Positions 83 to 34,147 of a stretch of 64,000 bases of DNA are shown here, one piece after another; the first letter of the stretch is position 1, and every line of letters starts with the position of its first letter. The position numbers and the translations under genes are program-made. The notes beneath the pieces are model-generated. The model did no database searches and had not been told where the DNA came from. It worked only from the letters and a program-made list of their open reading frames with translations. Source of the DNA: an uncultured Ruminiclostridium sp. (GTDB lineage Bacteria > Bacillota > Clostridia > Oscillospirales > Ruminococcaceae); contig CANRII010000001.1 of assembly GCA_947630685.1 (NCBI GenBank), forward strand, positions 199-64,198, given 5' to 3'.

Positions 83-1222
83 ATGATACTTTACGAGCTG
101 AAAAAATACATACTTAAACCCTCGGTATTTGTCTGCTTAATAATATTTGCCGTTGTGAACTTTGTAAAATTTTTCGAGCTGTACTACAATTTCGGAGGAG
201 GAAGAGGTCAGATTGCGGATAACGGCGCCGGTGCGGGCGTTATCGAGCTGTATGAAAAATACGGCGGGACTATCACCGATGAAAAGATAGCGGGGCTGAA
301 AGCCGACCTTGACTTTGCCGAAAAGAGCTTTGCCGAAAACGGCATTACCGAGGAAGCAAGCGACAAGTTTTACACCGGGTACGCTTACGGCGACAAAAAC
401 GAGATAAGCGCTATCATCAAAAAATACCAAAGCGCGATACTTTATGAAAACACCGCGAACGAACTATCGCAAAAGGCGGACGAAAACGCGAGATTTTTCG
501 CGGGCAAGAATGATTATGAACAGCGCAAAAACGAGCTTATCCGCGACACCTTCAGCGGGCGGTATATCGGACAATGCGTGAGAAGCAACGGGTGGGAAAC
601 GCTGTTTGACTTTAAGTTTTCCGCTATACTCACCATGCTACTTATCGCGCTTATGCTCTCCCCGATATTTGCGGGAGAACGCGCGGACGGCTTTGACCGA
701 CTTATAATATCGTCGGGAAAGCGCGGCGCGGCGATACGCTCAAAGCTGCTCACGGCGGGGATCGTCGCGTTTACGGTCACGCTGATATTCTTTATTTTAG
801 ATGTGAGCTATACCTTTACGGTGTACGGGCTCAGCTGCTTTGACGCGCCGCTTTATGCGATATATCCTAACGCCCCGCTAAACGTCACTTTGCTCGGAGC
901 GTTGGCAACGGCGTTTATTATGAGGCTTGCGGCTATGCTGTTTATGGCGGCGTGTGTTGTGCTTATCTCCTCGTTTTGCAAAAACACCGGCGCGGCGCTT
1001 ATCATATCGGTGCTGTTCGGCGCGGCGCTTGTCGTGCTGACCGAGCTTTTGCCGAGCGCGTTCAACCCGTTAGAGCTTGTATATTCGAGCGAGTTTTTCT
1101 CAAATTTTGACACGGTAGATCTTTTCGGCTTGCCGTGCTTACAGCTGTTTGCCTCGATAGGCTTTACGCTGCTGCTTACCTTAGCCGCGGGAGCGGTTAC
1201 GGCGATAAGGGGGCTTAGATAA
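83..1222 (+). CDS. ABC-2 type transporter permease
   Basis: Starts MILYELKK (ATG 83 preferred over TTG 44). N-terminal TM, extracytoplasmic loop, then about 5 TM helices; typical FAGERADG motif. Confidence 0.75.
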   Translation: MILYELKKYILKPSVFVCLIIFAVVNFVKFFELYYNFGGGRGQIADNGAGAGVIELYEKYGGTITDEKIAGLKADLDFAEKSFAENGITEEASDKFYTGYAYGDKNEISAIIKKYQSAILYENTANELSQKADENARFFAGKNDYEQRKNELIRDTFSGRYIGQCVRSNGWETLFDFKFSAILTMLLIALMLSPIFAGERADGFDRLIISSGKRGAAIRSKLLTAGIVAFTVTLIFFILDVSYTFTVYGLSCFDAPLYAIYPNAPLNVTLLGALATAFIMRLAAMLFMAACVVLISSFCKNTGAALIISVLFGAALVVLTELLPSAFNPLELVYSSEFFSNFDTVDLFGLPCLQLFASIGFTLLLTLAAGAVTAIRGLR

Positions 1223-4200
1223 TGGTACTTTCAGAGCTTAAAAAGCTGTTTATAAAGCAGCACGTTTTGCTTTTGATAATAATAATTTCAATAGTAAAGG
1301 TGATCACCTCGCTTAATATGTTCGCTCCCGATTATAACGGGCTTTCTCCCGAACAGCAGAAAAAATATCTCGCATATATAGACGAGCTCGGCGGAAAGCT
1401 CGACGAAAGCAAGGAGGAAAAAATCGTCCTGCTTTACGCCGAATATCAGTCCGCCGCCGAAATGTTAAAGCAGGTGCATGATAAATACGTCGCGGGCGAA
1501 TATGCCACCTCGGAGGAATATTTTGCCGCTATGCGGGAAATACCCGAGATAGCGGAGGACGCCGAGGCTATAGAAAAGCTGTACGCCGCTTATGAAAAGA
1601 TAAGCGAAAACGAAAGCGGTATGCTGCTCGCCTCGGACGCGCCGATAATGTCGGTCGGCATGGAGTACCCGCTTATGCTGCTTATCTGCTACATATCCGC
1701 CGCCGCGTTCTACTACGAGCGCAAAATGGATCCGCTGTCGCTGACATCCGTAAAGGGCAGATCCGCCTGCGCGGGAAGATCGTTCTCGCTGTTTTGCGCG
1801 GTGGGGCTTGCCTGTGTGATATTCTTTATAACGGAATTTTGCGCGTTGTGCGCCGAGATAGGCACAGACAGCCTTTTCGCCTCGGTGACCAGCCTTGAGA
1901 GCTTTGGCAGGTCAAATTACCCCGATATGAATATACTCACCTGCTTTTGCCTAGCACATCTGCTTAAATTTATCGGCTGTCTGCTGACTGCGGCGACCGG
2001 CGCGGTGATAATGAGGGCGGGAAAGAATTTTGCGGCGGCGATATTTACCCCCGCGGCGATACACTTTGTATGGGCGTACCTCTTTTCAAAAAAGGATATC
2101 GAGTTCTATTCCCCCTATTCGCTTATGCAGGGCGGGGTGTTCTTTCAAGGCGACGCTGAATACCGCACCCATCTTGCTATTCCGTCAGGGCAGACTATAG
2201 CGCTCGCCGCAGTGTCGATAGTGCTTATCGCGGCGGCGTGCATATATCTTACAAATTCATACAAAAACCGCCGTATGCGTATCGGCGGCGCGGCGATAAT
2301 TACCGCGGCTGTTATGCTGCTCGGCGGCTGTTCGGCAGCTTCAGGCGGCGATGAATATGCAAATATCGCCTATGATGAAGCCTACGGCGGCGGGTATTAT
2401 TTTAAGTGCCAAGACATATTAGCCGACGCGCCCGTATCAGACAGCTTCAGCAATACGAATGAAGACGATAAATATATTATCGGCACTAAAATAGAGCAGT
2501 ACGACGAATACGGGAAAATCGTCTGCGATCAGATAAACCGCGAGTTGTTTACCAACGGCGGCACCATACAGGATATATCAGTCTGCGGCGGGTATCTTTA
2601 TTATCTTTTCTACGACGGCGGGGGCAGCAAGATAGGCAGGATAAGCCTTGACGATTACTCCGACGACGTAATTTATTCGGGTGGGTACTATCCCGACTTG
2701 ACGGCTTATTTTGATTTGTTTTTGTTCTATGAATCAAGCGACGGTATGCCGCCCGAGCCGAAAGACTTTATTGCGGCTGAAAGCGGGGTGATCTTCCACA
2801 CCTCTAATGAAAACGGCGAGGCGCTTTACAGCTTAGACCCGTCAAGCGGCAGGATCTCTTATCTGCTTGAGGATATAATGATACCGGCTTACGCGTTAGC
2901 GGGCGGAAAGCTGTACTATATAAATTCCGACGGACATCTTACGTTATTTTCCGACAATAAAAAGACTAACGTGTGCGACGGTCAGTATAAGGCTATGTGT
3001 GCGTATGACGGAAAGCTGTATCTTGCGGGCGGACAGGGTATGTTCTGCTATGAGATAAACAGCGGCACGCTCGAAAAAATATCGGATATTACCGAGATCG
3101 TCGACCTCAGGATAGCAAACGATGTGCTTAAATATAAAATTTACGGCACGTCGCAGTGGGAAGAATTAAACCTCGGCTCCGACGCGGCAGACAGTACCAC
3201 CGACAGCACGGAAACCGGCACCGTTCCCGCCCCTGATGAGGAAACGTCCGACAGTGACGAGCCTACCCCGTCAGGAAACATCCACAGCTATACTATCATA
3301 AGCTACATAGACAAGGAGCAAAAGCACCTGCTGATGAGAAGACGGCTACCCTCGGACGACGGTTCATCGATGTATGAATTTGCGGTTTACGACACCGAGA
3401 GCAAAAAAATAATAGGCACGCTTGAAAACGACATTGAGAGATGTTGCTATTATGATGATCATATATCGCTGCCCTCGTTCAACGATCCCCAATCAGAAAC
3501 CACATTCGCTTTATACGATTCATCATTAAATAAAATAAAGATGATCGAGGGAGATGTATGGGAGCTTCCGCTATACCTTGACGACGAGGATATATTTATC
3601 GGCGGATACCATGTAAAGACCGCCGACGGGAAAGACGATTATAAGTGGGCAAGATATGATACCGACGGCAAGCTCATAGACTTTTTCGACGACGAAAATA
3701 AAGAATTATATCCTGCGCCCCCGCCTTTGGCGGTAAACGGAAAGCTTATATTTCAATCTACGGACGAAACTAACGAGAGCGGAGAATTTGTCGAGGTCAT
3801 GAATTATGACGGGAGCGATTACAGAATATGGCAGATATATGATGAAATTGAGTATCACAAAGTCGGTCGGCTCGGCAAATACGTCTACTTTTTGCCCGAT
3901 AATATCAGTGGGCATGAGGGGATACCCGGAAAGGCGTATTTTTACGATACCGAGAAAGACGATCTGATATATGTAGATACCGTCACAGAGCATGAGGTGG
4001 CAAATTCAACGGTCAGCCCCAACGGAAAGTATCTTGTCACCAATTTTACGGAATTAAAAGACAAAATCCCGGTGCGAACATTTATACGCTTTTACGATAT
4101 AGAAAAGAACGAGCTTGTATACACCTATACTAAAGAAGATGTGGAATACGGCTGTATGATAGACGCATATTTTGACGGTGTGCAGGTGAGATCCCTAGAC

Positions 4201-4242
4201 GGAGATTATTTTCTGAAGTATGAGGATCTGGGGCTAAATTAA
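1222..4242 (+). CDS. ABC-2 permease fused to large extracellular beta-propeller-like domains
   Basis: About 350 aa multi-TM permease, then LLGGC lipobox-like segment, Tyr/Asp-rich propeller-like repeats, S/T/D/E linker, and a C-terminal domain paralogous to that of 4258..6321. Start overlaps the previous stop (TAATG). Confidence 0.7.
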   Translation: MVLSELKKLFIKQHVLLLIIIISIVKVITSLNMFAPDYNGLSPEQQKKYLAYIDELGGKLDESKEEKIVLLYAEYQSAAEMLKQVHDKYVAGEYATSEEYFAAMREIPEIAEDAEAIEKLYAAYEKISENESGMLLASDAPIMSVGMEYPLMLLICYISAAAFYYERKMDPLSLTSVKGRSACAGRSFSLFCAVGLACVIFFITEFCALCAEIGTDSLFASVTSLESFGRSNYPDMNILTCFCLAHLLKFIGCLLTAATGAVIMRAGKNFAAAIFTPAAIHFVWAYLFSKKDIEFYSPYSLMQGGVFFQGDAEYRTHLAIPSGQTIALAAVSIVLIAAACIYLTNSYKNRRMRIGGAAIITAAVMLLGGCSAASGGDEYANIAYDEAYGGGYYFKCQDILADAPVSDSFSNTNEDDKYIIGTKIEQYDEYGKIVCDQINRELFTNGGTIQDISVCGGYLYYLFYDGGGSKIGRISLDDYSDDVIYSGGYYPDLTAYFDLFLFYESSDGMPPEPKDFIAAESGVIFHTSNENGEALYSLDPSSGRISYLLEDIMIPAYALAGGKLYYINSDGHLTLFSDNKKTNVCDGQYKAMCAYDGKLYLAGGQGMFCYEINSGTLEKISDITEIVDLRIANDVLKYKIYGTSQWEELNLGSDAADSTTDSTETGTVPAPDEETSDSDEPTPSGNIHSYTIISYIDKEQKHLLMRRRLPSDDGSSMYEFAVYDTESKKIIGTLENDIERCCYYDDHISLPSFNDPQSETTFALYDSSLNKIKMIEGDVWELPLYLDDEDIFIGGYHVKTADGKDDYKWARYDTDGKLIDFFDDENKELYPAPPPLAVNGKLIFQSTDETNESGEFVEVMNYDGSDYRIWQIYDEIEYHKVGRLGKYVYFLPDNISGHEGIPGKAYFYDTEKDDLIYVDTVTEHEVANSTVSPNGKYLVTNFTELKDKIPVRTFIRFYDIEKNELVYTYTKEDVEYGCMIDAYFDGVQVRSLDGDYFLKYEDLGLN
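3295..4242 (+). repeat. Duplicated C-terminal domain, copy 1 (copy 2 at 5371..6321)
   Basis: Both encode II[SG]YIDKEQKHLLMRRRLP...YFLKYE[DE]LGL. Nucleotide similarity is patchy, with a near-identical 159-nt stretch (3445-3603 vs 5521-5679). Confidence 0.9.
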
Positions 4243-4257
4243 AAAAGGAGGATAATT

Positions 4258-6321
4258 ATGAAAATCAAAAGAATTATCGCTATGTTAGCAGCGGCGGCGC
4301 TATGTCTTACGGCTTGCTCGGACACCAGGGCGACGTCCGGCATGGCGAGCGACCCGTTTGCGGACGAAAGCGCGGATTCGGCGGAAGAAACCGAACTCAG
4401 CGACAAAGATTATGAGGAACTGTTCGGAAAATATCAATCGGGCATTGCGGACTTTGACGACAGGAGCTTTGAATACAAGGACGGCGTGATAGAAAAGTCG
4501 TTCACCGCCAAGACCAAAGACAACGAATACGATGTAGAATACGGCTATATGGCTTATATAAACGGCATACCGCAGAAAATAAGCCTAAACGGCGGCGAGC
4601 CGCAGGAAATGGTGAGCGTCACCCTGCCGCCCAATACCGAGCAGAAAATAACGCTTGACATTAAGCCTGCTCTTACCGAGGATATAAAAAGCGAAAAAGA
4701 ATTGCAAGTGAAATTTTTGAGCATATTTAATCCGTCCTACAAGCCGCAGGGGCAGTATGTGGGCTTCGGTAACGCCCATAACGGCACAGCCGACGGCAGA
4801 CAAATCATACAGCCGGACGGCTCGGAGGAGAGTATTTCGGATATAAAAACTACTACCGAGTACGAATCGGTCGCTATTACCAAAGAGGTAAAGAAAAAGT
4901 ATTCGCTGAACGATGTTACCGCGAGCGGCTATATCATGATAAGCGGGGATTATTTACCGCTTAAATCGGGAGAAAGCTCCGTCAAGACAGATATACTTAT
5001 GCTCGGCAATACGGCTAACACCTATCGGGTATTTTTGTACAAAAATCACGAGCGGATACAAATAAACGGCTGTGACTGCGCCGAAATGAAGGTAGAAAAC
5101 GGCAAGCTCAGTATACTCGGCGTCGAGATACCCGACGTACAAAACCGCGATATCCTTTATGCTGTGGCAATACCCATAGACGACACGGAAAATATCATCA
5201 ATCTTTGCAAATCCGGCAGCGCTCTGATACTCAGCGAGGACGATCCGAGCTATAATTTAGTTCAGGAGACCGACGAAACGGAGTCTGTACCGAGCACGGA
5301 AACTTCCGACGAGCCGGAAGAAGAAGAGGAGGAAGAGGAAGAAACCGGCGGCAGTATTTACGATTACGGTATCATAGGCTACATAGACAAGGAGCAAAAG
5401 CACCTGCTGATGCGAAGGCGGCTTCCCACGGACGGGGATCCAACGATGTATGAATTTGCGGTATACGACACCGACAGCGAAAAGATAACAAGCACCCTCG
5501 AAAACGACTATGACGAATACTGCTATTATGATGATCATATATCAATATCCTCGTTCAACGGTCCCCAATCAGAAACCACATTCGCTTTATACGATTCGTC
5601 ATTAAATAAAATAAAGATGATCGAGGGAGATGTATGGACGCTTCCGATATACATTGACGACAAGGATATATTTATCGGCCTGTGCCCCGGAAAAGACGAC
5701 GACGGAAAAGACATTCTTAAGTTGGCAAGATACGATAAGGACGGTAAGCTGATAGATTTTATCAAAGACTGCGATACGTACGATCCGATTAGCATTTTAG
5801 CGGTAAACGATAAGCTGATATGTGAGTCGCAGCACAGCGAATACGGCAAAGGCGAGTTTGTCGAAGTAATGAATTATGACGGCAGCGATTACCGAAGATG
5901 GCAGATATTTGACAGCACCGAATATCATTACGTCGGACAACTCGGGAAATATATTTACTTTTTGCCGAACCTGATAAAAAACCCCAAGGACGGCCCCGGA
6001 AAGGTGTATTTTTACGATACCGAGAAAGATGATCTGATTTATGTGGACACCGTGACAGAAGAAGAGGCGGGAAGCTCCTCGGTCACTCCCGACGGGAAGT
6101 ATCTTGTCACCTGTTACGTGGAGGAAAAGGACAGAATAGCTCAGCAGGAATTTGTACGTTTTTACGATATTGAAAAGAATGAGCTTGTTTACACCTACAA
6201 CAGAGGAAAAGACAAGATAGAGTTTGGACTTGCCGGAGTAACGGCATATTTTGACGGTGTATGGGTGTATTCCCGCGACGGTAATTATTTTCTGAAATAT
6301 GAGGAGCTCGGGCTTTATTAA
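4258..6321 (+). CDS. Lipoprotein with C-terminal beta-propeller-like domain
   Basis: Signal peptide MKIKRIIAMLAAAALCLTAC with lipobox, AGGAGG RBS, poly-Glu linker, C-terminal domain shared with the upstream gene. Confidence 0.8.
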   Translation: MKIKRIIAMLAAAALCLTACSDTRATSGMASDPFADESADSAEETELSDKDYEELFGKYQSGIADFDDRSFEYKDGVIEKSFTAKTKDNEYDVEYGYMAYINGIPQKISLNGGEPQEMVSVTLPPNTEQKITLDIKPALTEDIKSEKELQVKFLSIFNPSYKPQGQYVGFGNAHNGTADGRQIIQPDGSEESISDIKTTTEYESVAITKEVKKKYSLNDVTASGYIMISGDYLPLKSGESSVKTDILMLGNTANTYRVFLYKNHERIQINGCDCAEMKVENGKLSILGVEIPDVQNRDILYAVAIPIDDTENIINLCKSGSALILSEDDPSYNLVQETDETESVPSTETSDEPEEEEEEEEETGGSIYDYGIIGYIDKEQKHLLMRRRLPTDGDPTMYEFAVYDTDSEKITSTLENDYDEYCYYDDHISISSFNGPQSETTFALYDSSLNKIKMIEGDVWTLPIYIDDKDIFIGLCPGKDDDGKDILKLARYDKDGKLIDFIKDCDTYDPISILAVNDKLICESQHSEYGKGEFVEVMNYDGSDYRRWQIFDSTEYHYVGQLGKYIYFLPNLIKNPKDGPGKVYFYDTEKDDLIYVDTVTEEEAGSSSVTPDGKYLVTCYVEEKDRIAQQEFVRFYDIEKNELVYTYNRGKDKIEFGLAGVTAYFDGVWVYSRDGNYFLKYEELGLY
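5371..6321 (+). repeat. Duplicated C-terminal domain, copy 2 (copy 1 at 3295..4242)
   Basis: Offset of 2076 nt from copy 1 at the 5' end. Confidence 0.9.
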
Positions 6322-6393: not shown

Positions 6394-6422
6394 TTGAAAA
6401 CCCTATGCGAATATGATATAAT
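6394..6422 (+). promoter_or_regulatory. Sigma-A type promoter with extended -10
   Basis: TTGAAA-17 nt-TATAAT with TG at the extended position, upstream of the M4 peptidase gene. Confidence 0.75.
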
Positions 6423-6505
6423 TAATATTAGATAAGATACTTATGCAATTCCGAAACGGCATAAGTATCTTATCATATTCGTATAAAAATAAAAGGAGAA
6501 GAAGC

Positions 6506-9139
6506 ATGAAGAAAACAAAGTTTGCCGCAGCGATAACGACCGCCTCGGCTATGCTGTTTGTCTGTGCGTTTTCCGCCTCGGCGGAGAATTACGCCGTTAC
6601 CGGCTCGTTCGACGCATACAGCGAAGGCGATTCGGCGACAGTTACGGCCACCGTTACAAACGATTACTACTATGATGTAGACGGCATCGGCTACAGCGTA
6701 TCGGTATCGGATAACGCGGTGATCAAGGGCGAAACCTCTAAAACCGACGTATCGCTTGCCGCGGGTGAAAGCGACAGCCTTACCTTTGAGGTAGAGCTTT
6801 TACAGCAGGAGGAGTCCTCGCAGCCCGAAGCTTCCAAGCCCGAAAGCTCTCAGCCCGAAAGCTCCGAACCCGAAAGCTCTCAGCCGGAATCTTCACAGTC
6901 GGCGGGCGATAACCCGAATACCGGCGTAGGCGTAAGCGGCGCGGCTATAGCTGTATCCGTTCTGGCTTTGGCGGCGGTAGGTTTCGCGGCTGTAAGAAAG
7001 AAAAAACAGCTGCTTTCACTTATACTTTGCGTAGCTGTAGCGGGTACCGCGGTAGTAACATCCTTGCCGCTTACAGCTGACGCGGAAGAGGCCGAAAGCG
7101 ATCCCTCAACGCAGATAGTTGAGATGGAGCTGGGCGGCGAAACGGTAACGGTAACTCTTGATATTACCGTACCCGAGCAGCCGGAGATACACGATAACTC
7201 CGAAGAGGATATCCAGCGCCTCAACGACGGCAAAGCGGTCATCTCAAGATACACCGACAGCGGAGAGATATCCTTTATAAACGGTAAATACACCGATTAT
7301 AAGGTCACCGACCCCGAAACGGCATTCAATTCTACCAGAGCGGTAGACACACTACTTAACAGCAAGGACGTTGTGCTCGCATACTTAAGGACTGACACGG
7401 CTCAAAACGGCGACACGTTCTACACCTTTACCCAGATGCAGGGAATAGCGCAGGTCTCCAACGCTTTCATCAAGATAGGAGTAGACAAGGACGGCAACAC
7501 TATCAGCCTGTCCAGCTCTATCGACCCCGACGCGACCGCGCTTAATATTTCCGAAGAGGATGTAAGAGCAAACTTTGAAAAAGCTATAGAGGCAGCGGAA
7601 AAATACGTTGAGGAAAACGGCGGTACGCTGGTCCCCGCGGCAGAGCCTAATGTAGTTTTGCACAAGAACGCTTACATGGCGTCCTGCTTCCTGTTTTATG
7701 TCAAGCTGGACGAGAATCCCAATCTGCCGAGCGGTTCGGAATCCTCCGGCTATCTTAAGCTGCTTATAGAAACTCAGTCATGTACGGTATACGACGTGGT
7801 TCCGGTAAAAACTATCGACTCGACTACCGGCGAAAACGTCGATAACAGTAAATATTTCGACGTAGAAACCGAGCAAATGGAATTTACCGACTATTACGGT
7901 CAGAAGGTAACTCTGCCGGTAGCTAAGAACGACGACGGTTATTACTTTGTAGATCCCGAGCGCAAAATTATCTGCGTCGATTCCTGGAAAACCTTTGATA
8001 CCGAAAAAGCAGGAATACAAAACGTTGTTCCGGTGGTATTCGCTTCCGCCGAAGAAGCTCCGGCGCTGCTGGTATCCATATTCAGCAACATGAGGACTAT
8101 CTACGACTTTTATGCCGCAAAGGGCATTAAGTCCTTAGACGGCAACGGACTTCCCTTACTGCTCGGTTTAGGATTTAACGCGGGCTTCGGTCAGGATATG
8201 GAGAACGCGGCGTTCACCTCCGTGATAAGCGGATTCGGCTGCTTCATGTTCGGCAATTATCCGCTAAGCTCTTGCTTTGATTTCTCCGCGCACGAGTTCA
8301 CACACGGAATAAAAGCCTGCCACAACAGCAAAGGCACGGCTATAAATAACGCCGGCTCGATAGAAGAATCCTACGCGGATATACTCGGCAATCTTATCGA
8401 AATGCAGATAGACCCGCCGGGCTGCAACAAGGATATATGGTACATCGGAGAGCAGCAGATGGGTAAAACGAGCATCCTGCGCTGCATGTCCGACCCGCAT
8501 TCCTGCAATCAGCCGGAATATGTAGGCGACGTAAACTTCGTAATGAATACCCGATATGCGTCCTCGCTGGTAATAGACGACAGCGGCGGAGTACATGTAA
8601 ACAACTCCATACTGCCGTATATATGCTATCAGATGGATCAGGCGGGCATAAGCCTTGAAGATAACTTCGATATATGGGCATACACCCTTTATACTGCGGT
8701 ACCCGACAGCGAGTATAAGGATATAGCCGAAATGCTCAAGCTCGCGGTAGTGCGTCTTGGCTTTGAGGATAAGCTAGACACGGTAAGCAAGCTGCTGGAC
8801 AACGCTAACCTTTACGGCGATACAACTTCGTGGGACAGCTACGAAAGGCCGGAGGGTTCGGTAAAGCTTGAATACAAGCTGGAGAACGTTCCCGAAGGCT
8901 GCGAATGGTCGTTGGCTATAAAGAAAAATCTCGGCCGCTCCGGCAACCTTGTATATGCTACCGCCGATGAAAACAACGTTGCGACCAGCTACACCATGCC
9001 CGAAGCTCAAACCACTCTTATGCTGCTGATATCGATGGAGGGAAAAACCTATGCCGCTACCGTCTTTAACGACGATCTGGATTCCGATATGTCGGTAACA
9101 TTAGACTTTGATGAGCTTGAGCTCATGTTCCTTATGTAA
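6506..9139 (+). CDS. Secreted M4 (thermolysin-like) metallopeptidase with N-terminal domain and internal NPNTG sorting signal
   Basis: AAGGAG RBS then ATG 6506; signal peptide ending ASA. HEFTH zinc motif, GSIEESYAD third ligand, GGVHVNNSI, and an FTP-like propeptide region. Confidence 0.85.
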   Translation: MKKTKFAAAITTASAMLFVCAFSASAENYAVTGSFDAYSEGDSATVTATVTNDYYYDVDGIGYSVSVSDNAVIKGETSKTDVSLAAGESDSLTFEVELLQQEESSQPEASKPESSQPESSEPESSQPESSQSAGDNPNTGVGVSGAAIAVSVLALAAVGFAAVRKKKQLLSLILCVAVAGTAVVTSLPLTADAEEAESDPSTQIVEMELGGETVTVTLDITVPEQPEIHDNSEEDIQRLNDGKAVISRYTDSGEISFINGKYTDYKVTDPETAFNSTRAVDTLLNSKDVVLAYLRTDTAQNGDTFYTFTQMQGIAQVSNAFIKIGVDKDGNTISLSSSIDPDATALNISEEDVRANFEKAIEAAEKYVEENGGTLVPAAEPNVVLHKNAYMASCFLFYVKLDENPNLPSGSESSGYLKLLIETQSCTVYDVVPVKTIDSTTGENVDNSKYFDVETEQMEFTDYYGQKVTLPVAKNDDGYYFVDPERKIICVDSWKTFDTEKAGIQNVVPVVFASAEEAPALLVSIFSNMRTIYDFYAAKGIKSLDGNGLPLLLGLGFNAGFGQDMENAAFTSVISGFGCFMFGNYPLSSCFDFSAHEFTHGIKACHNSKGTAINNAGSIEESYADILGNLIEMQIDPPGCNKDIWYIGEQQMGKTSILRCMSDPHSCNQPEYVGDVNFVMNTRYASSLVIDDSGGVHVNNSILPYICYQMDQAGISLEDNFDIWAYTLYTAVPDSEYKDIAEMLKLAVVRLGFEDKLDTVSKLLDNANLYGDTTSWDSYERPEGSVKLEYKLENVPEGCEWSLAIKKNLGRSGNLVYATADENNVATSYTMPEAQTTLMLLISMEGKTYAATVFNDDLDSDMSVTLDFDELELMFLM
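6812..6898 (+). repeat. 15-nt tandem repeats encoding (ESSQP)n linker
   Basis: ESSQP EASKP ESSQP ESSEP ESSQP ESSQ. Confidence 0.9.
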
Positions 9140-9156
9140 TTAAAATAAATTATTTT

Positions 9157-9184
9157 TCCCCCGCTTTAAGCGGGGGATTTTTTT
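9157..9184 (+). terminator. Rho-independent terminator
   Basis: TCCCCCGC-TTTAA-GCGGGGGA stem-loop followed by T7. Confidence 0.85.
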
Positions 9185-9413
9185 GGGGTGGGAGGGTGGG
9201 ATGACCCGCGAAGCGGGGCATGAAAAACGGAGGGCGGAATAGAGGCTGATCTATAGGAAAATAACATCATGTAGGGGAGAAACTGCACTATCCGTTAAAA
9301 AGCACTATCGCTTAAAAAAGTAAACTCGTTTAAGGGAAAAACGTCGAAATAAAGGCAGCTGCGTCGATTTCCCGAAAATCGCTTTTTATTTCGTAAAAAT
9401 CAAAACCGCTATA

Positions 9414-9442
9414 TTGAAAATATTGTTAATTTGTGGTATAAT
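9414..9442 (+). promoter_or_regulatory. Sigma-A type promoter with extended -10
   Basis: TTGAAA-17 nt-TATAAT, TGG before the -10, upstream of the LytTR gene. Confidence 0.75.
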
Positions 9443-9518
9443 TAAATATATATGTCCGGCATTTCCTCTGAACCTAGGGATATCGGCATATTCTTTGACC
9501 CGGTTGGAGGTATCTTCT

Positions 9519-10256
9519 ATGCGTATTGCGATTTGCGACGATGAGCAGCACGAGCGCGAACGGCTTGAACAAGCGCTGCAAGGCTGTGACGCCGCGTACA
9601 GCGCGGAAAAATTTGCCGACGGAGCTTCTTTGTTGGATGCGACAAAAAAATCCCCTCCGTTCGATATTGCGTTTTTGGACATATATATGCCCGGCGAAAA
9701 CGGCATAGATATAGCAAAAATACTGCGGCAGATATCCCCCGATACCGGCATTGTATTTGTGACTACCAGCAGAGAGCACGCCGTGGACGCGTTTTCTCTT
9801 TACGCCCTGCACTATCTGGTAAAGCCCGCTACGACAGACGGGATAGCGGAGGCGTTACACCGTCTTAATCAGTCCCGCCGCGAACAAAGAGAACGCATTA
9901 CCCTTACTGTAGGTGCGGAAAGGCACACGGTGTTTCTCGATCAGATATGCTTATTGCAAAACGATAATCACGCGGTGAATGTAACGCTGTCCGACGGGCG
10001 CAGCCTTAAGGTCTGGATGTCGCTGGGCGAGATGGAAAAGAAAATGAATAAGAACTTTCTTAAGATAAACCGCGGTATAATCGTCAATATGGATTATATC
10101 GAACAGATGAGGACAGACGTCTGCGTTATGCGCAGCGGGATAAGACTGCCAATCGCGGTAAGACAGAGCGCCGTGATACGCGCGGCGTATGATAACTATG
10201 TGTTCGACCGGCTCGCCGGACGAAAAAACCTTACGGCAAAGGAGCCTAGACCATGA
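9519..10256 (+). CDS. LytTR family response regulator
   Basis: MRIAICDDE, FLDIYM (phospho-Asp), YLVKP, C-terminal FLKINRGIIVNMDYI LytTR domain; GGAGG RBS before ATG 9519. Confidence 0.92.
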   Translation: MRIAICDDEQHERERLEQALQGCDAAYSAEKFADGASLLDATKKSPPFDIAFLDIYMPGENGIDIAKILRQISPDTGIVFVTTSREHAVDAFSLYALHYLVKPATTDGIAEALHRLNQSRREQRERITLTVGAERHTVFLDQICLLQNDNHAVNVTLSDGRSLKVWMSLGEMEKKMNKNFLKINRGIIVNMDYIEQMRTDVCVMRSGIRLPIAVRQSAVIRAAYDNYVFDRLAGRKNLTAKEPRP

Positions 10257-11623
10257 TCGCTTTTTTAGAAAATGCTCTGGGATTTATCGTGCAGTTTTTG
10301 CCCTGCGTTATCCTGATATTTCTGCCGTTCCCCGAAGAGGCGTTCCGCTTCAGACGAAGAAATATATTCTTCTGGCTGTCGGTGATCTCGGTGGCGGTAG
10401 CCGTTTTGCTCTCGGCGGTATTATGCCTTAGAGATACGGAAAAATATCCTCAGCATATAGTAATATCCAATTCCTTTATGCTTGCTGCTATACTGCTTAT
10501 CTTAGCGGCGTATATCTGGCTGGTTCGGGAGTCGGTGATAAAAAAGCTGATGATATTTTTTATAGTGATGTTCTACGGCGCGACGGTCTACATACTGGTA
10601 AACTCCACCTACGCGCTTATATTCCCGAATCAGATAGACACCACTATATACCCCTATACCGACCGGTTTCTTATCATGTTCGCCGCCGTGACCGCTTTAC
10701 TGCTGCCTATGATAATCGCGGCGGTGATAAATCCGCTGAAAGAATACGTCCAGCTGATAGAACCGAAAAACATGCGGCGCGAATTTTGCATCGTGACTTT
10801 TTCCACGCTGCTTTATTTTACCACGATGATATGCTGCGTGACGTTTTTCGGAAGCAAAGGGCTTTTGCAGTACGTCCTGCTGCCCATGATATTCATGACG
10901 GCGAATCAGCTGCTGATATACTGGCTGATATTCCGCGAATCCGTCAGGCGCAAGCTGGACGGCGAGCAGCTCCACGCTATCGAGATAAGGCAGCTGCAAT
11001 ATGAAAAGATAGTAAACGACATGGAAAATACCCGCCGTATGCGCCACGATATGCGCCATCATTACAACTCGCTGAACGATATGCTCAGCCGCGGAAAATA
11101 CGACGAAATGAAAGACTACTTGTCCCAGCTGATAGATACCACGGTAAAGCGCGATGATAAGATGTACTGTAAAAACCTCACGGTAAACGGGCTTTTACAA
11201 TATTACGTCGGCATGGCAAGGGACAGGGATATCAGCTGCGACGTCAGCGCGGAATGCGACGAGCTTATGATAGAGCCGGCGGATCTTACCGTGCTGTTCG
11301 GCAACACTATGGAAAACGCGATAAATTCATGCGGAAAATACCCCGGCGAACGTCATATAGAAATACGGCTCGGTACGGTAAACGGCTCGCTTGCGATAGA
11401 GATATCCAATTCCTGCAAGGAGGTAAATCTTGATAAGCGCTTCAGCTCGGAGGACGGCTTTATGCCCGCCAACGCGTTTATCAGCAGCAGGAACGGCGGC
11501 GGATACGGACTTAGCAGTATCACGCATACCGCGCAGAAATACGGCGGCAGCGCTAAATTCAGATTTGACGCGGAAAAAGAATTGTTCACCGTTCGTATAC
11601 GGTTGAATATGCACACGAATTAA
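10253..11623 (+). CDS. GHKL sensor histidine kinase (AgrC/VirS-like)
   Basis: About 7 TM N-terminus, RRMRHDMRHH H-box, NTMENA N-box, GGYGLSSI G-box; ATGA overlap with the regulator. Confidence 0.9.
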   Translation: MIAFLENALGFIVQFLPCVILIFLPFPEEAFRFRRRNIFFWLSVISVAVAVLLSAVLCLRDTEKYPQHIVISNSFMLAAILLILAAYIWLVRESVIKKLMIFFIVMFYGATVYILVNSTYALIFPNQIDTTIYPYTDRFLIMFAAVTALLLPMIIAAVINPLKEYVQLIEPKNMRREFCIVTFSTLLYFTTMICCVTFFGSKGLLQYVLLPMIFMTANQLLIYWLIFRESVRRKLDGEQLHAIEIRQLQYEKIVNDMENTRRMRHDMRHHYNSLNDMLSRGKYDEMKDYLSQLIDTTVKRDDKMYCKNLTVNGLLQYYVGMARDRDISCDVSAECDELMIEPADLTVLFGNTMENAINSCGKYPGERHIEIRLGTVNGSLAIEISNSCKEVNLDKRFSSEDGFMPANAFISSRNGGGYGLSSITHTAQKYGGSAKFRFDAEKELFTVRIRLNMHTN

Positions 11624-30763: not shown

Positions 30764-33700
30764 ATGAAGCTAAGAAACAGGATCATATCCGTAGTGACCT
30801 GCGCGGCAATGCTGCTTACTATGCTGCCGGCTCAGGTCTTTGCCGAGGAAGAGCCTGTCACGGTCACTATCTTTACGACCAATGACATCCACGGCACTAT
30901 GGAAGGCGACGGCACCGTCGGCATCGTTCAGGCGGCCGCTATGAAAGCGTCTACCCCCAACGCATTGCTTGCGGACGCGGGCGACGCTACGCAGGGTGCG
31001 TCCTTTGCGACTATATCGCAGGGCGAGGACGTTATCCGCATGATGAACGCGGCAGGCTACGACGTTATGGCTGCCGGAAACCATGAATTCGACTACGGCA
31101 CCGAGCAGCTGCTCAGCAACGCCGAAACCGCCGAGTTCCCGATAATCAGCGCAAACGTTAAGCTGAACGACGAGCTTATGCTTCCCCCGACCGCGATCGT
31201 TGAGCAGGCGGGAAAAACCATAGGATTTATCGGACTTACCACGGTAAACACTCTTACTACCGCAAACCCCGAAAAGCTCGCTGGCGTAAGCTTTTCCGAT
31301 GAAGCGGCGGCCGCTAAGGAGCAGATAAAGGCGCTCGCAGACCAGACCGACGCTATCGTGCTTATCTGCCATCTCGGCGATAACGAGGCCGCGGTAAAAT
31401 GCACCAGCAAGGACCTGCTGGACGCTCTGTCCGACAGCGAGCTTGCCGAGGTAGCCGCAGTTATAGACGGTCACAGCCACTCTGTAGAAGATGTGACGTA
31501 TGAACGCGGCGGAGTTACCGTTCCGGTAGTGCAGACCGGCGTATATTCCTCCGGTATAGGCAAGCTGGAGCTTACCTTTGATAACGGCAAGGTTACCGCT
31601 GACGGCGACGTGCTCACCGCAGCCGAGGCAAGCGAGTATCAGCTTACCGACGCGGGCAAAGCGGCAGCCGAAAAGGTACAGAAAGCGCTTGACGATATAA
31701 AGGCCGAGCAGGAAAAGACTCTCGGCGAGGAACTCTGCTATAACAGAATTCCTCTCTGGGGCGGCTACATTTATTATGATTATGCCGAGCCGCGTATAGT
31801 AGAAACCAGCTACGGCGATTTTGTCACCGACGCATTTGCGGAATACGCAGCCGCATTCAACGAGCAGAACAAGCTTTCCCTGCCTGTTATCGCGGTAGAG
31901 AACGGCGGCGGCATCTCGGCGGCGCTTCCTATGGGCAAGGTGACCCGCGGCGATGTGCTGAACGCCTTTAACCACGGCAACATGGTGGAGGTGTACACCG
32001 TTACTCCCGCACAGCTCAAGACCGCACTGGAGGCGGGACTTACCATGACCGGACAGGACGAGACCGGACTTTTGATAAGAGAGCGCGTGAGCGGCAGCTT
32101 CTTACAGGTAAGCGGCTTTGAATACACCTATGACCCCTCCGGCGAATCCGGCAATAAAGTTAAAGAAATAAAGCTTGAAGACGGTACCGCGCTCAGCCTT
32201 ACCGATACTTCCACCAAGCTGCTGCTTGCCACCAACAATTATGTAGGAGGCAGCTTTGCGGCGCTCGGCTGTGAAAAATTAGGCGAGCTCGGCGGCGAGG
32301 ACCAGCTGATAAGTGACTATATACTTTCGTTTACCTCGGTCAGCTCACTGCTTAATTATCAGGTTTTAGGGAACCGTATAAAGATCTATAACGACAAAGC
32401 TCCCGACACCTATACCGTGAAGATACCGGTATACCTCCCCGACGGCAAGACCGTACAGCCCGGAGCAAAGGCTAATATCTGCGTGGACGGCGAACAGTCC
32501 CAGCCCGTAGCGACCGACGAGGACGGCAATATAGTTATGACCGTTCCGAGCGGCGCGCATACCTTTGTTCTTGTAGAATCCTCCGACAACATGCCGGTAT
32601 ACGTCAACAACTATTCCGGCTCCGGCACAGTTACCACTAAGCCGGGTTATTACAGCCTTTCCTTCAAGGCGGAAAAGCTGCCGGCGTTCGATCCCGAGGT
32701 AGAAAAGGATATCGACGAGGCGGTACAGTACCTCAGAGAGAAAGCCGTAGAATACAACGAATGGGTAGAGAACAATATAAATTATCTCGCCGATGAGAGA
32801 AAAGAAGGCTTCTATAACGACATAGAGCAGCTCCTTGACGTTGCCGAGCATGATCTTAGAAGTCTCGGAACTATCGACGAGATAGAGGAAAGAAAAGCAT
32901 ACTACGACAACAATATGCAGATCAACGAGTACAGTATCTATGTACAGAATCTGATCGAATTCTACTACATGGAGATCGACGATCTGGAGTTTGCTCCGGA
33001 TGAAGTAAAGCAGGAAGCAAAGACCAGCGTAGCTAATGCGGCGCTGCAATACTCCGCTTATATAATAAACGACATGCTGAACGGCGTCGATCCCGCCGAA
33101 ACGCTGGACAACATCAAGGTGTATGACTCCATTATGTATCTAGGCGCATGCGAGGCGTACATTGAAGATAATTACCTTTACTGCAAAGGCTACTTAGACC
33201 TCCTTCGCCATCATTCCGACGCGGATATCAACGAATACCGTGAAAAAATAGAGGAAATGTACAAAGAGGCAAAGGATATCCTCGCTAATTATACCGACGC
33301 CGAAGCTGCCGCAAACAGCATAAACAAGTACTTTAATGATTCCGACGCTTTTATTGACAGTATTCTTATGAGCGAATATACCAATCTGGTGAACGGCTTT
33401 ATTCCCGACACATTTGACTGGATTGTAACGAATTACTCCGAAAAGCTTGCCGATATAAGCGATGAAGAGGTAAAGGCTATCCGCGACGAGTTTATTAAGG
33501 TCGCCGAAGAGTCGGTCGAGCCTATTAGAGAGGAAACTCAAAAAGATCAGCCGAGCAGCGATAATCTTAAAGCCATCGTAAACAAAGTTATAAGCAAATT
33601 CGACCAATCGGTGCTGGAAGTGTTCTACACCAATTCCAAAAACAAGCTGAGCGCTGCTGCTTCCGACGCAAAGGCAGCGCTTGAGGGTATGGAAGAGGAA

Positions 33701-34147
33701 TACAATGTGGACCTTTCAGACTATATCGCAGACATTGATAAAGCACTTGAGGCGGGTATAGATTCGCTTAATACCGAATATCAGAAGCTTGCCGACGAAA
33801 ATTACTCCATATCGCTGATTGAAGAAGAAGATGCGCCGTTTGACGTATCAGACGAAGCGATAGCAGAGGCATACGACAGATTAAACTCCGCCATCACTTC
33901 CGCTCAAGAACAGATATATACTGTACTTGATAGTGCTGCCGACGCTGCTACGAGCGAGCCTGAAAGCGAGCCCGAAAGCGAACCTGAGAGCCAGCCCGAA
34001 AGCGAACCCGAAAGCAAACCCGATGAAAATCCCGATACCGGTTATCCTATCGGCGGAGCGGTGCTCGTTACATTGATACTGTCTGGCTGCGCGGCTGCCG
34101 CAATGCCTATCAGTAAAAAGCTGAGAAGAGAAAAGAACGATAAATAA
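30764..34147 (+). CDS. Cell-wall-anchored 5'-nucleotidase/metallophosphoesterase
   Basis: Signal peptide; TNDIHG, DAGD, GNHEFD, GHSH metal motifs; nucleotidase C-domain; long acidic helical region; SEPE repeats; NPDTG + TM + KKLRR sorting signal. Confidence 0.9.
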   Translation: MKLRNRIISVVTCAAMLLTMLPAQVFAEEEPVTVTIFTTNDIHGTMEGDGTVGIVQAAAMKASTPNALLADAGDATQGASFATISQGEDVIRMMNAAGYDVMAAGNHEFDYGTEQLLSNAETAEFPIISANVKLNDELMLPPTAIVEQAGKTIGFIGLTTVNTLTTANPEKLAGVSFSDEAAAAKEQIKALADQTDAIVLICHLGDNEAAVKCTSKDLLDALSDSELAEVAAVIDGHSHSVEDVTYERGGVTVPVVQTGVYSSGIGKLELTFDNGKVTADGDVLTAAEASEYQLTDAGKAAAEKVQKALDDIKAEQEKTLGEELCYNRIPLWGGYIYYDYAEPRIVETSYGDFVTDAFAEYAAAFNEQNKLSLPVIAVENGGGISAALPMGKVTRGDVLNAFNHGNMVEVYTVTPAQLKTALEAGLTMTGQDETGLLIRERVSGSFLQVSGFEYTYDPSGESGNKVKEIKLEDGTALSLTDTSTKLLLATNNYVGGSFAALGCEKLGELGGEDQLISDYILSFTSVSSLLNYQVLGNRIKIYNDKAPDTYTVKIPVYLPDGKTVQPGAKANICVDGEQSQPVATDEDGNIVMTVPSGAHTFVLVESSDNMPVYVNNYSGSGTVTTKPGYYSLSFKAEKLPAFDPEVEKDIDEAVQYLREKAVEYNEWVENNINYLADERKEGFYNDIEQLLDVAEHDLRSLGTIDEIEERKAYYDNNMQINEYSIYVQNLIEFYYMEIDDLEFAPDEVKQEAKTSVANAALQYSAYIINDMLNGVDPAETLDNIKVYDSIMYLGACEAYIEDNYLYCKGYLDLLRHHSDADINEYREKIEEMYKEAKDILANYTDAEAAANSINKYFNDSDAFIDSILMSEYTNLVNGFIPDTFDWIVTNYSEKLADISDEEVKAIRDEFIKVAEESVEPIREETQKDQPSSDNLKAIVNKVISKFDQSVLEVFYTNSKNKLSAAASDAKAALEGMEEEYNVDLSDYIADIDKALEAGIDSLNTEYQKLADENYSISLIEEEDAPFDVSDEAIAEAYDRLNSAITSAQEQIYTVLDSAADAATSEPESEPESEPESQPESEPESKPDENPDTGYPIGGAVLVTLILSGCAAAAMPISKKLRREKNDK
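33953..34024 (+). repeat. 12-nt tandem repeats encoding (SEPE)n wall-spanning linker
   Basis: SEPE SEPE SEPE SQPE SEPE SKPD. Confidence 0.9.

Follow-up and report, generated by a model that had tools for sequence, protein, structure and literature searches.

Sortase anchoring is taught as a C-terminal mechanism, sorting signals being normally found at the C-terminus of the proteins that carry them. To our knowledge, the N-terminal LPXTG motif of the streptococcal IgA1/Zmp proteases is the only documented exception, and it has so far been a poorly understood curiosity of one family. In these M26 enzymes a signal peptide and an LPXTG motif are reported to be followed by two hydrophobic segments, the latter of which was proposed to act as another signal peptide and to carry the second signal-peptidase site, S2; the atypical N-terminal LPXTG was required for localisation to the wall (PMC3518915). 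The mature IgA1 protease is taken to start at residue 154 (PMC7695701). Here we describe a protein of similar layout, P0001, which is the 877-amino-acid (aa) product of an open reading frame (ORF) at positions 6506-9139 (+ strand) of a 64,000-nucleotide (nt) stretch of DNA. This whole stretch, "the window", to which all plain nucleotide positions below refer, comes from an uncultured rabbit-gut Clostridia genome (Ruminiclostridium sp., GenBank assembly GCA_947630685.1, 2.25 Mb; here G000). An earlier note, made from the sequence of the window alone, had proposed that the ORF encodes two surface proteins that are separated by sortase and signal peptidase. In outline, that mechanism is probably right. 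The comparisons presented below make it fairly likely that the two enzymes split one precursor into a wall-anchored DUF11 domain and a thermolysin-type zymogen.

P0001 has the same order of elements as the Zmp enzymes (IgA1 protease/ZmpA, ZmpB, ZmpC and ZmpD), namely signal peptide, motif, hydrophobic segment, charged loop, hydrophobic segment and zinc metalloprotease. The principle of an internal sortase signal is, by this analogy, not new, the streptococcal Zmp/IgA1 proteases sharing its logic. The resemblance, to judge from the sequences, is one of architecture and not of ancestry. P0001 is an M4 protease from the gut Clostridia whereas the Zmp enzymes are M26 proteases of streptococci; their leaders show no sequence similarity; and NPXTG with class B sortases takes the place of LPXTG with sortase A. 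In P0001, unlike Zmp, the first signal peptide is separated from the motif by a folded DUF11-like domain and a variable linker, and the second predicted cut is followed by a conserved β-hairpin; there is neither a G5 domain nor a repeat region (a Pfam scan of P0001 returned no M26 or G5 match). Its leader, again unlike that of Zmp, has been shuffled as a module among many unrelated passengers, and full-text literature searches returned no description of it. The same logic has arisen independently in gut Clostridia, with another sortase class and another motif. Beyond the earlier note, the present analysis adds the match between motif and sortase class, the co-variation of the motif with its host, the portability of the leader and a possible docking hairpin.

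The earlier note had read P0001 as a signal peptide, a domain of about 80 aa, a linker, NPNTG, a hydrophobic helix, RKKK, a second hydrophobic stretch and an M4 domain, and all of these elements were recovered, at the following positions (a slash marks a predicted cut):

6506-9139, + strand: ORF of P0001, a leader-module M4 metalloprotease precursor (ATG at 6506, stop codon at 9137-9139, 877 aa).
6506-6583, + strand: first signal peptide, aa 1-26, MKKTKFAAAITTASAMLFVCAFSASA/EN, beginning MKKTKF, with a predicted cut at ASA/EN.
6584-6808, + strand: DUF11-like, Ig-type β-sandwich of six strands, aa 27-101 (AlphaFold2; predicted local distance difference test (pLDDT) 84-95).
6809-6910, + strand: low-complexity (PESSQ)n linker (P-E-S-S-Q/E), aa 102-135, seen in the sequence (pLDDT below 50).
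6911-6925, + strand: NPNTG sortase motif, aa 136-140, with Asp135 before it (Rumino_NPXTG match and conservation).
6926-6994, + strand: first transmembrane segment (TM1), the hydrophobic part of the sorting signal, aa 141-163, VGVSGAAIAVSVLALAAVGFAAV, 23 hydrophobic residues predicted to run out-to-in.
6995-7006, + strand: RKKK, the predicted cytoplasmic loop, aa 164-167 (K165 kept in at least 90% of homologues).
7007-7084, + strand: second transmembrane segment (TM2) or second signal peptide, aa 168-193, QLLSLILCVAVAGTAVVTSLPLTADA, with a predicted signal peptidase I cut at ADA/EE (193/194) and EEAESD next.
7103-7171, + strand: two-strand β-hairpin, aa 200-222, TQIVEMELGGETVTVTLDITVPE, strands 202-209 and 212-221, the last part of the module.
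7172-7885, + strand: propeptide region, FTP/PepSY-like, aa 223-460, with the conserved motif PEQPEIHDNSEEDI (Foldseek; FTP model below its cut-off).
7886-8737, + strand: M4 (thermolysin-type) catalytic domains, aa 461-744 (Pfam PF01447 and PF02868, Foldseek).
8843-9136, + strand: C-terminal β-sandwich, aa 780-877 (AlphaFold2 strands 786-867, pLDDT 78-91; W801 invariant).

The n-h-c layout of the first signal peptide was judged by inspection, and its residues S25 and A26 were invariant in 22 homologues. The length of the linker, which presumably spans the wall, varied from ~3 to ~110 aa across homologues.

Among 5.8 billion proteins searched, 24 relatives with 27-77% identity were found; when one genome of each prokaryote species was scanned, 27 loci were obtained. 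These loci came from metagenome-assembled genomes (MAGs) of rabbit, rumen, chicken and human gut, labelled Ruminiclostridium, Ruminococcus, Acutalibacteraceae and Oscillospiraceae. The junction between the anchoring part and the protease was in frame in all 22 relatives that were aligned over their full length (33-80% identity, separate assemblies). The earlier note had suggested looking in homologues for the same hairpin architecture, and every complete copy found did keep the order of signal peptide, domain, linker, xTG, TM1, basic loop, TM2 and AxA-type site. Within the M4-family alignment the motif residue T139, S171 and C175 were invariant, G140 was kept in at least 90% of sequences, and L174 was conserved. 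A paralogue in the same genome, P0006 (G000:C17:22415-25027), also keeps the junction in frame. At the nucleotide level the first ~540 nt of the two genes (leader through TM2) were 91-97% identical, as against ~40-70% beyond that point and only 53% in the 400 nt upstream. The difference between leader and remainder indicates that the leader evolves as its own unit, and the module seems to have been homogenised or exchanged between the paralogue copies. The layout goes beyond coincidence. When the ORFs of the genome of at least 150 aa were searched with the pattern xxxT(G/S), TM, basic residues, TM, four matches were obtained, two of them P0001 and the C17 paralogue; the other two (SSMTG on contig C30 and VNPTS on contig C157) were unrelated, loose matches without NPxTG.

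Fusion of two neighbouring genes by an assembly or sequencing error, the misassembly against which the earlier note had warned, might be suspected on two grounds, as the junction sits within an A-rich run (AAGAAAGAAAAAACAG) and the gene call P0017 seems to start at TM2. P0017 is the second copy at a locus of Lapin-002 bin51 (L013:9900-10800), where two leader-M4 genes stand in tandem. That copy has a frameshift inside its PETEA linker repeat and is started by gene callers at "MWACAKKK" within TM1/TM2; it represents a frameshift in a linker repeat and not a gene boundary, and reflects either an assembly error in the repeat or an inactivation that is real and possibly phase-variable. All complete homologues from independent assemblies, as well as the paralogue, have the junction in frame, and neither a start codon nor a ribosome-binding site precedes TM2. 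An artefact of this kind is refuted for practical purposes. An internal translation start for the protease was likewise rejected, no ATG, GTG or TTG with a ribosome-binding site being found near TM2 in the P0001 gene.

A scan for C-terminal signals, which covered all ORFs of the assembly, showed that ~20 proteins of the genome end in a motif, a hydrophobic helix and a basic tail (NPxTG or xTxTG, TM, KKRK), with the motifs NPDTG, NPITG, NPPTG, NPGTG, NPNTG, STDTG, STNTG, NVDTG and VPDTG. One of them lies in the window:

34028-34147, + strand: comparator, the true C-terminal NPDTG sorting signal of a 5'-nucleotidase, at the end of ORF 30764-34147.

This nucleotidase (5_nucleotid_C and Metallophos) indeed carries at its true C-terminus the unit of NPDTG, helix and basic residues that the earlier note had described, ending in ENPDTG, a hydrophobic stretch and KKLRREKNDK. 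Another true C-terminal signal, NPNTGVGLDGAAG on contig C85, resembles the TM1 region of P0001, in that it reads NNPNTGVGLDGAAG..., very like the internal DNPNTGVGVSGAAI....

The internal NPNTG with its 23 hydrophobic residues and RKKK constitutes a full sorting-signal pattern. When compared with the NPXTG-anchored proteins recognised by the NCBIfam model Rumino_NPXTG (NF033846), which are class B substrates, it matched in motif, helix, Lys/Arg tail, spacing and composition. The two differ in that the basic tail of the former is followed by a stop codon, whereas in P0001 the signal is internal (aa 136-167 of 877), its tail runs into a signal peptide and the reading frame stays open past it in every homologue. 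A six-frame search of the genome with NF033846 gave 20 matches, and in it the internal site scored 25.1 bits against a cut-off of 23.5. The only sortases of the genome are encoded by three tandem genes (G000:C39:9996-13414), all of class B, which scored 163, 157 and 126 bits with the class B sortase model TIGR03064 (cut-off 153.75). They encode proteins of 362, 404 and 359 aa, each with an N-terminal TM, and lie between cinA-like and SpoIID-like genes; the triplet recurs in two other genomes (G005:C21 and G009:C57). Class B sortases are the class that targets NPXTG/NPQTN, and the class B sortase of Bacillus anthracis favours Asp at P5, as in DNPNTG (PMC11987632). The ~20 C-terminal signals and a sortase set made up of class B alone bear out the view that NPxTG is the sorting signal of this host.

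The internal motif was also found to vary with the genome that carries it. Close relatives have NPNTG, NPGTG or NPKTG, and more distant orthologues have I(K/D/N)TGDD or IKTGQ(D/N), with VKTGN also occurring among genomes G001-G004. The genomes with an internal NPxTG (G000, G005, G007 and G009) gave 10-20 matches each to the NPXTG model, with best E values of 1e-5 to 1e-9, whereas matches were weak or absent in the TGD-type genomes G001-G004 (best E 0.03-0.7), where conventional sortases number 8-11 each in G001-G003 and 2 in G004. A profile of "TGD" signals was built and retrieved from G001-G004 the true C-terminal signals VNTGDNY, APKTGDNG, TPKTGDESN, SPQTGDNSN, VATGDSRS, TTTGDNTP and SIKTGAAS, after each of which come a helix, a basic tail and the stop codon. 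In both groups, then, the internal motif is of the same class as the C-terminal signals of the host, and no other available evidence speaks so strongly for its recognition by sortase, a switch of motif class together with the host being hard to explain without selection by sortase.

The leader might instead be a membrane anchor only, in which case signal peptidase would free the protease and the DUF11 domain would be held by TM1 and the signal-peptide remnant, with no action of sortase. Several findings count in favour of this arrangement and against a sortase step. The internal position departs from the normal C-terminal one, and with hmmscan on the whole protein NF033846 scored 18.6 bits, below the cut-off of 23.5. 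TS or TD stands in place of TG in three relatives, of which two have the decayed motifs ADTSGG (P0016, genome G006) and VQTSDH (P0019, genome G008) despite 14 and 8 NPXTG matches in their genomes, and the third has IKTDDN (P0024). A further protein, P0025, keeps the hairpin without a recognisable motif. The sortase step may thus be dispensable in some lineages. Set against these findings are the invariance of the motif Thr and the retention of Gly in at least 90% of the M4 family, the presence of TG in ~90% of the wider module set, and the switching of motif class along with the C-terminal motif class of the host. In the streptococcal precedent, the N-terminal LPXTG of Zmp was needed for wall localisation (PMC3518915). 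Although the evidence from hidden Markov models (HMMs) for an internal NPXTG signal is borderline when taken alone, the comparative evidence makes a strong case for it, and an anchor that dispenses with sortase altogether appears unlikely for P0001.

Downstream of the motif, RKKK is the sole spacer between the two helices of P0001. We collected 55 hairpin-bearing proteins, 52 of which were complete through the TM1-TM2 region, and a basic loop of 3-8 residues occurred at the same place in 52/52. The proposal of the earlier note that RKKK serves both as the tail of the sorting signal and as the n-region of a second signal peptide is consistent with both observations. Inspection of the 52 proteins by eye showed an h-region beginning (L/M)(L/M)S(L/I)x(L/V)C, then a helix breaker, then a small-x-small (AxA-type) site ~25-35 residues after the loop, with acidic residues next; a crude automatic site-picker proved noisy and was not relied on. 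In P0001 itself, inspection gave the parts of a Sec type I signal peptide, with RKKK as n-region, LLSLILCVAVAGTAVV as h-region and TSLPLTADA as c-region, with the predicted cut before EE. A 92-position core profile of the module was applied to 399 genomes drawn evenly from the class, and its weaker matches mostly covered positions 24-84 only and started just after a stop codon. These partial matches are ordinary N-terminal signal peptides ("MKKLLSLILC...VSA/"), for example MKKLLSLILCVAILVTAITTVSA/N, and by this comparison TM2 is indistinguishable from a common Clostridia Sec signal peptide in which "MKK" has been replaced by "RKKK".

If TM2 were instead an uncleaved second span, the protease would be anchored in the membrane by the hairpin of helices with its active site outside, with or without a sortase cut. 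Internal signal-like segments often serve as signal anchors, and the full-length AlphaFold2 model shows two helices (145-164 and 167-186). The helix-breaking Pro/Gly, the small-x-small site and the acidic residues are, however, kept while the rest of the c-region varies freely, the h-region has only ~16 residues, and the segment cannot be told apart from the cleaved N-terminal signal peptides of the class. An uncleaved TM2 is accordingly given little credence here. The conserved LxLC (Cys175) was also considered as a lipobox (L-[ASTVI]-[GAS]-C, in which the -1 residue is small and the h-region comprises 7 or more residues) and rejected: the -1 residue is always Leu, Val or Ile (LILC, IMLC, LAVC), only 6 residues of h-region precede the Cys, orthologue L027 has Thr in place of Cys, and the "MKKLLSLILC" pattern is found in ordinary signal peptides of the class. 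Two NCBIfam models, named as if for anchoring signals in inverted or mid-protein positions, matched P0020 aa 179-253 and P0001 aa 144-220 far below cut-off (NF058595, "lipo-invert putative C-terminal anchoring domain", at 15.1 bits; NF033207, "midcut-by-XrtH protein", at 13.6 bits); the matches probably reflect only the composition of the double helix.

From these features we infer a coherent topology in which the N-domain lies outside, TM1 runs out-to-in, RKKK is inside, TM2 runs in-to-out and the protease is outside. Processing by sortase and signal peptidase would then proceed as follows. The first signal peptide would lead the N-terminus through Sec and be removed at ASA/EN. The DUF11-like domain and the PESSQ linker would be exported until TM1 stopped transfer, with RKKK staying in the cytoplasm, and TM2 would re-initiate export as an ordinary signal peptide does, so that the small domain and the pro-protease would both stand outside, linked by the helical hairpin. 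Signal peptidase I would cut after ADA193 and free the N-terminus of the pro-protease, whereas a class B sortase would cut NPNT/G and link Thr139 to peptidoglycan, leaving a 54-residue hairpin (G140-A193) in the membrane. The three cuts, all on the outer face of the membrane, would yield two products, a thermolysin-type zymogen and a DUF11 domain held on the wall by a flexible stalk. The zymogen might remain tethered to the wall through a docked β-hairpin until autoprocessing of the propeptide released the mature enzyme.

A more elaborate outcome would be excision of the membrane hairpin, sortase ligating ...NPNT to the N-terminus made by signal peptidase and thereby rejoining the two ectodomains without it. 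In many relatives the residue at +1 of the predicted cut is Ala (AKA/AD, VNA/AE), and the sortase B of B. anthracis accepts alanine nucleophiles (PMC11987632). In P0001, the new N-terminus would be Glu or Asp and not Ala or Gly, and the product would be a plain secreted fusion, for which no hairpin is needed. We know of no precedent for sortase-mediated excision of a hairpin and regard it as highly improbable.

The leader of P0001 is not confined to M4 proteases. A HMMER search of 1.84 billion representative proteins with residues 1-212 gave 94 matches, among which some are plain C-terminal sorting signals and ~40 show the whole N-terminal layout followed by unrelated passengers. (Homologue searches with region 1-240 and with a module alignment returned almost only the M4 family, their index words being dominated by the M4 part or by low complexity.) Among the passengers, Pfam identified an S8 subtilase (with BspA repeats), a class 3 lipase (with VWA), VWA combined with TSP3 and Listeria-Bacteroides repeats, and giant proteins rich in CarboxypepD_reg. 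From the xTG motif through the two-strand segment after the predicted cut, ~92 residues align almost without gaps across carriers, with motifs in the wider set that include NPKTG, PPKTG, NPNTA, NPETD and many xQTGD/xKTGD. The DUF11 model (PF01345, cut-off 24.6) matched the N-domain of other carriers (P0063, 29.1 bits; P0057, 24.8 bits), and P0025 weakly matched TIGR01451. The N-domain of P0001 gave no PF01345 match in the Pfam scan, and its Foldseek matches were to generic Ig-like folds only. Judged by these alignments, the new element is the whole leader, from first signal peptide to β-hairpin, as a module reused on many secreted enzymes.

The distribution of the module is patchy. It was found at full length in 4/399 genomes of the class and in 5/301 genomes of the order, 4 of those 5 being among the 8 that represented this genus. 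In G582, a complete genome from the genus, it heads proteins of 2,025 and 2,254 aa (G582:C1:648877-654954 and 2144365-2151129) with the motifs NPETD and NPSTD, in which Asp replaces Gly, and G001-G003 each encode further module proteins besides their M4 copies. No convincing free-standing N-module ending after the basic tail was found among the profile matches; the short matches appear to be frameshifted (P0026, P0029) or truncated (P0054). At one locus (L081, G102:C8:16900-17650), a sortase substrate ends in ...PKTGDESN, a TM and GRRRKREDAEV, and the signal peptide of the next gene, MKSKTIKSILLCVAML, begins one codon past the stop in the same frame. A gene pair of this type could be the arrangement from which a fused leader arises by loss of the stop codon.

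The part of the module that follows the predicted signal-peptidase cut, the β-hairpin at aa 200-222, is conserved in carriers with unrelated passengers. Its pLDDT was 75-86 in the full-length AlphaFold2 model and rose to 87-91 in a module-only model (residues 1-226), in which the N-domain reached 88-95 and the residues between fell below 50. An isolated hairpin rarely gets such pLDDT values. The predicted template-modelling score (pTM) of the module-only model was 0.47, with 122/226 residues disordered; a rough estimate from the ordered residues gave a pTM of ~0.33 if the N-domain alone is fixed and ~0.42 if the hairpin is fixed to the N-domain. Read from these confidence values, docking of the hairpin, at the new N-terminus of the passenger, on the DUF11 domain is a possibility that we hold with some doubt. 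Two considerations speak against it: the DUF11 profile is fully covered by the N-domain, which is not obviously short of a strand, and a tether N-terminal to the propeptide would in any case let the mature protease go. The "released protease" of the earlier note is, for its part, perhaps too simple a description, since the hairpin may hold the passenger on the anchored domain after the cut. More tentatively still, the leader could be a device for tethering any passenger (M4, S8, lipase, VWA, giant β-proteins) to the wall by its N-terminus, sortase fixing the DUF11 domain and the hairpin plugging in or on, without any C-terminal signal; in the M4 case autoprocessing of the zymogen would act as the release switch.

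As the module is found on proteases, lipases, VWA proteins and surface proteins of 2,000 residues, it constitutes a second system beside Zmp, and a far more diverse one, in which one may ask how an internal sorting signal is processed, what becomes of the excised membrane hairpin and whether the products stay together. These proteins escape surface predictions limited to C-termini, and their start is sometimes placed at TM2 by gene callers. If docking is true, the module could be reused for the N-terminal display of enzymes.

The passenger of P0001 is, by sequence and fold, a genuine and intact M4 protease. Pfam matched Peptidase_M4 at aa 461-602 (44.1 bits; gathering cut-off 22.4) and Peptidase_M4_C at aa 614-744 (57.3 bits; gathering cut-off 24.4). 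The zinc-binding HEFTH is at aa 596-600 (nt 8291-8305), the third zinc ligand is E620 and the catalytic His is H697, and H596, E597, H600, E620, D625 and H697 were invariant across 22 homologues. The full-length AlphaFold2 model (pLDDT 73.9, pTM 0.72) matched aureolysin in Foldseek (7skm_C, E 2.6e-12, TM-score 0.75), as well as thermolysin (E ~1e-10) and further M4 enzymes. The FTP propeptide model scored 16.3 bits in Pfam, below its cut-off of 21, and in Foldseek the pre-catalytic region resembled the propeptide chain of vibriolysin MCP-02 (3nqz_A, E 1.2e-3). Catalytic fold and zinc and catalytic residues are those of thermolysin, aureolysin and vibriolysin MCP-02, and the propeptide may be of the same type. 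In ordinary M4 precursors the propeptide directly follows a single signal peptide, whereas in P0001 a 193-residue anchoring leader stands in front; P0001 also has an extra C-terminal β-sandwich (aa 780-877), for which Pfam gave no match.

The following expression signals were found around the gene:

6394-6422, + strand: promoter-like site, TTGAAA, a 17-nt spacer and (TG)TATAAT, matching 11/12 consensus positions (consensus match only).
6494-6499, + strand: ribosome-binding site AGGAGA, seen in the sequence, 6 nt 5' of the ATG at 6506.
9157-9187, + strand: intrinsic-terminator-like hairpin and T-run, a 9-bp stem with 7 G-C pairs followed by TTTTTTT.

A longer ORF starting from an ATG at 6443 was judged unlikely. 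With a promoter-like site upstream and a terminator-like hairpin downstream, the P0001 gene looks monocistronic. The two ORFs directly upstream, at 4258-6321 (687 aa) and 1222-4242 (1,006 aa), are without a Pfam match; the 687-aa product has a lipoprotein-type signal at its start (MKIKRIIAMLAAAALCLTAC) and an acidic, E-rich stretch. Directly 3' of the protease terminator lie a LytTR response regulator and a GHKL histidine kinase (9414-11623), and the LytTR regulator has a promoter-like site of its own at 9414-9442.

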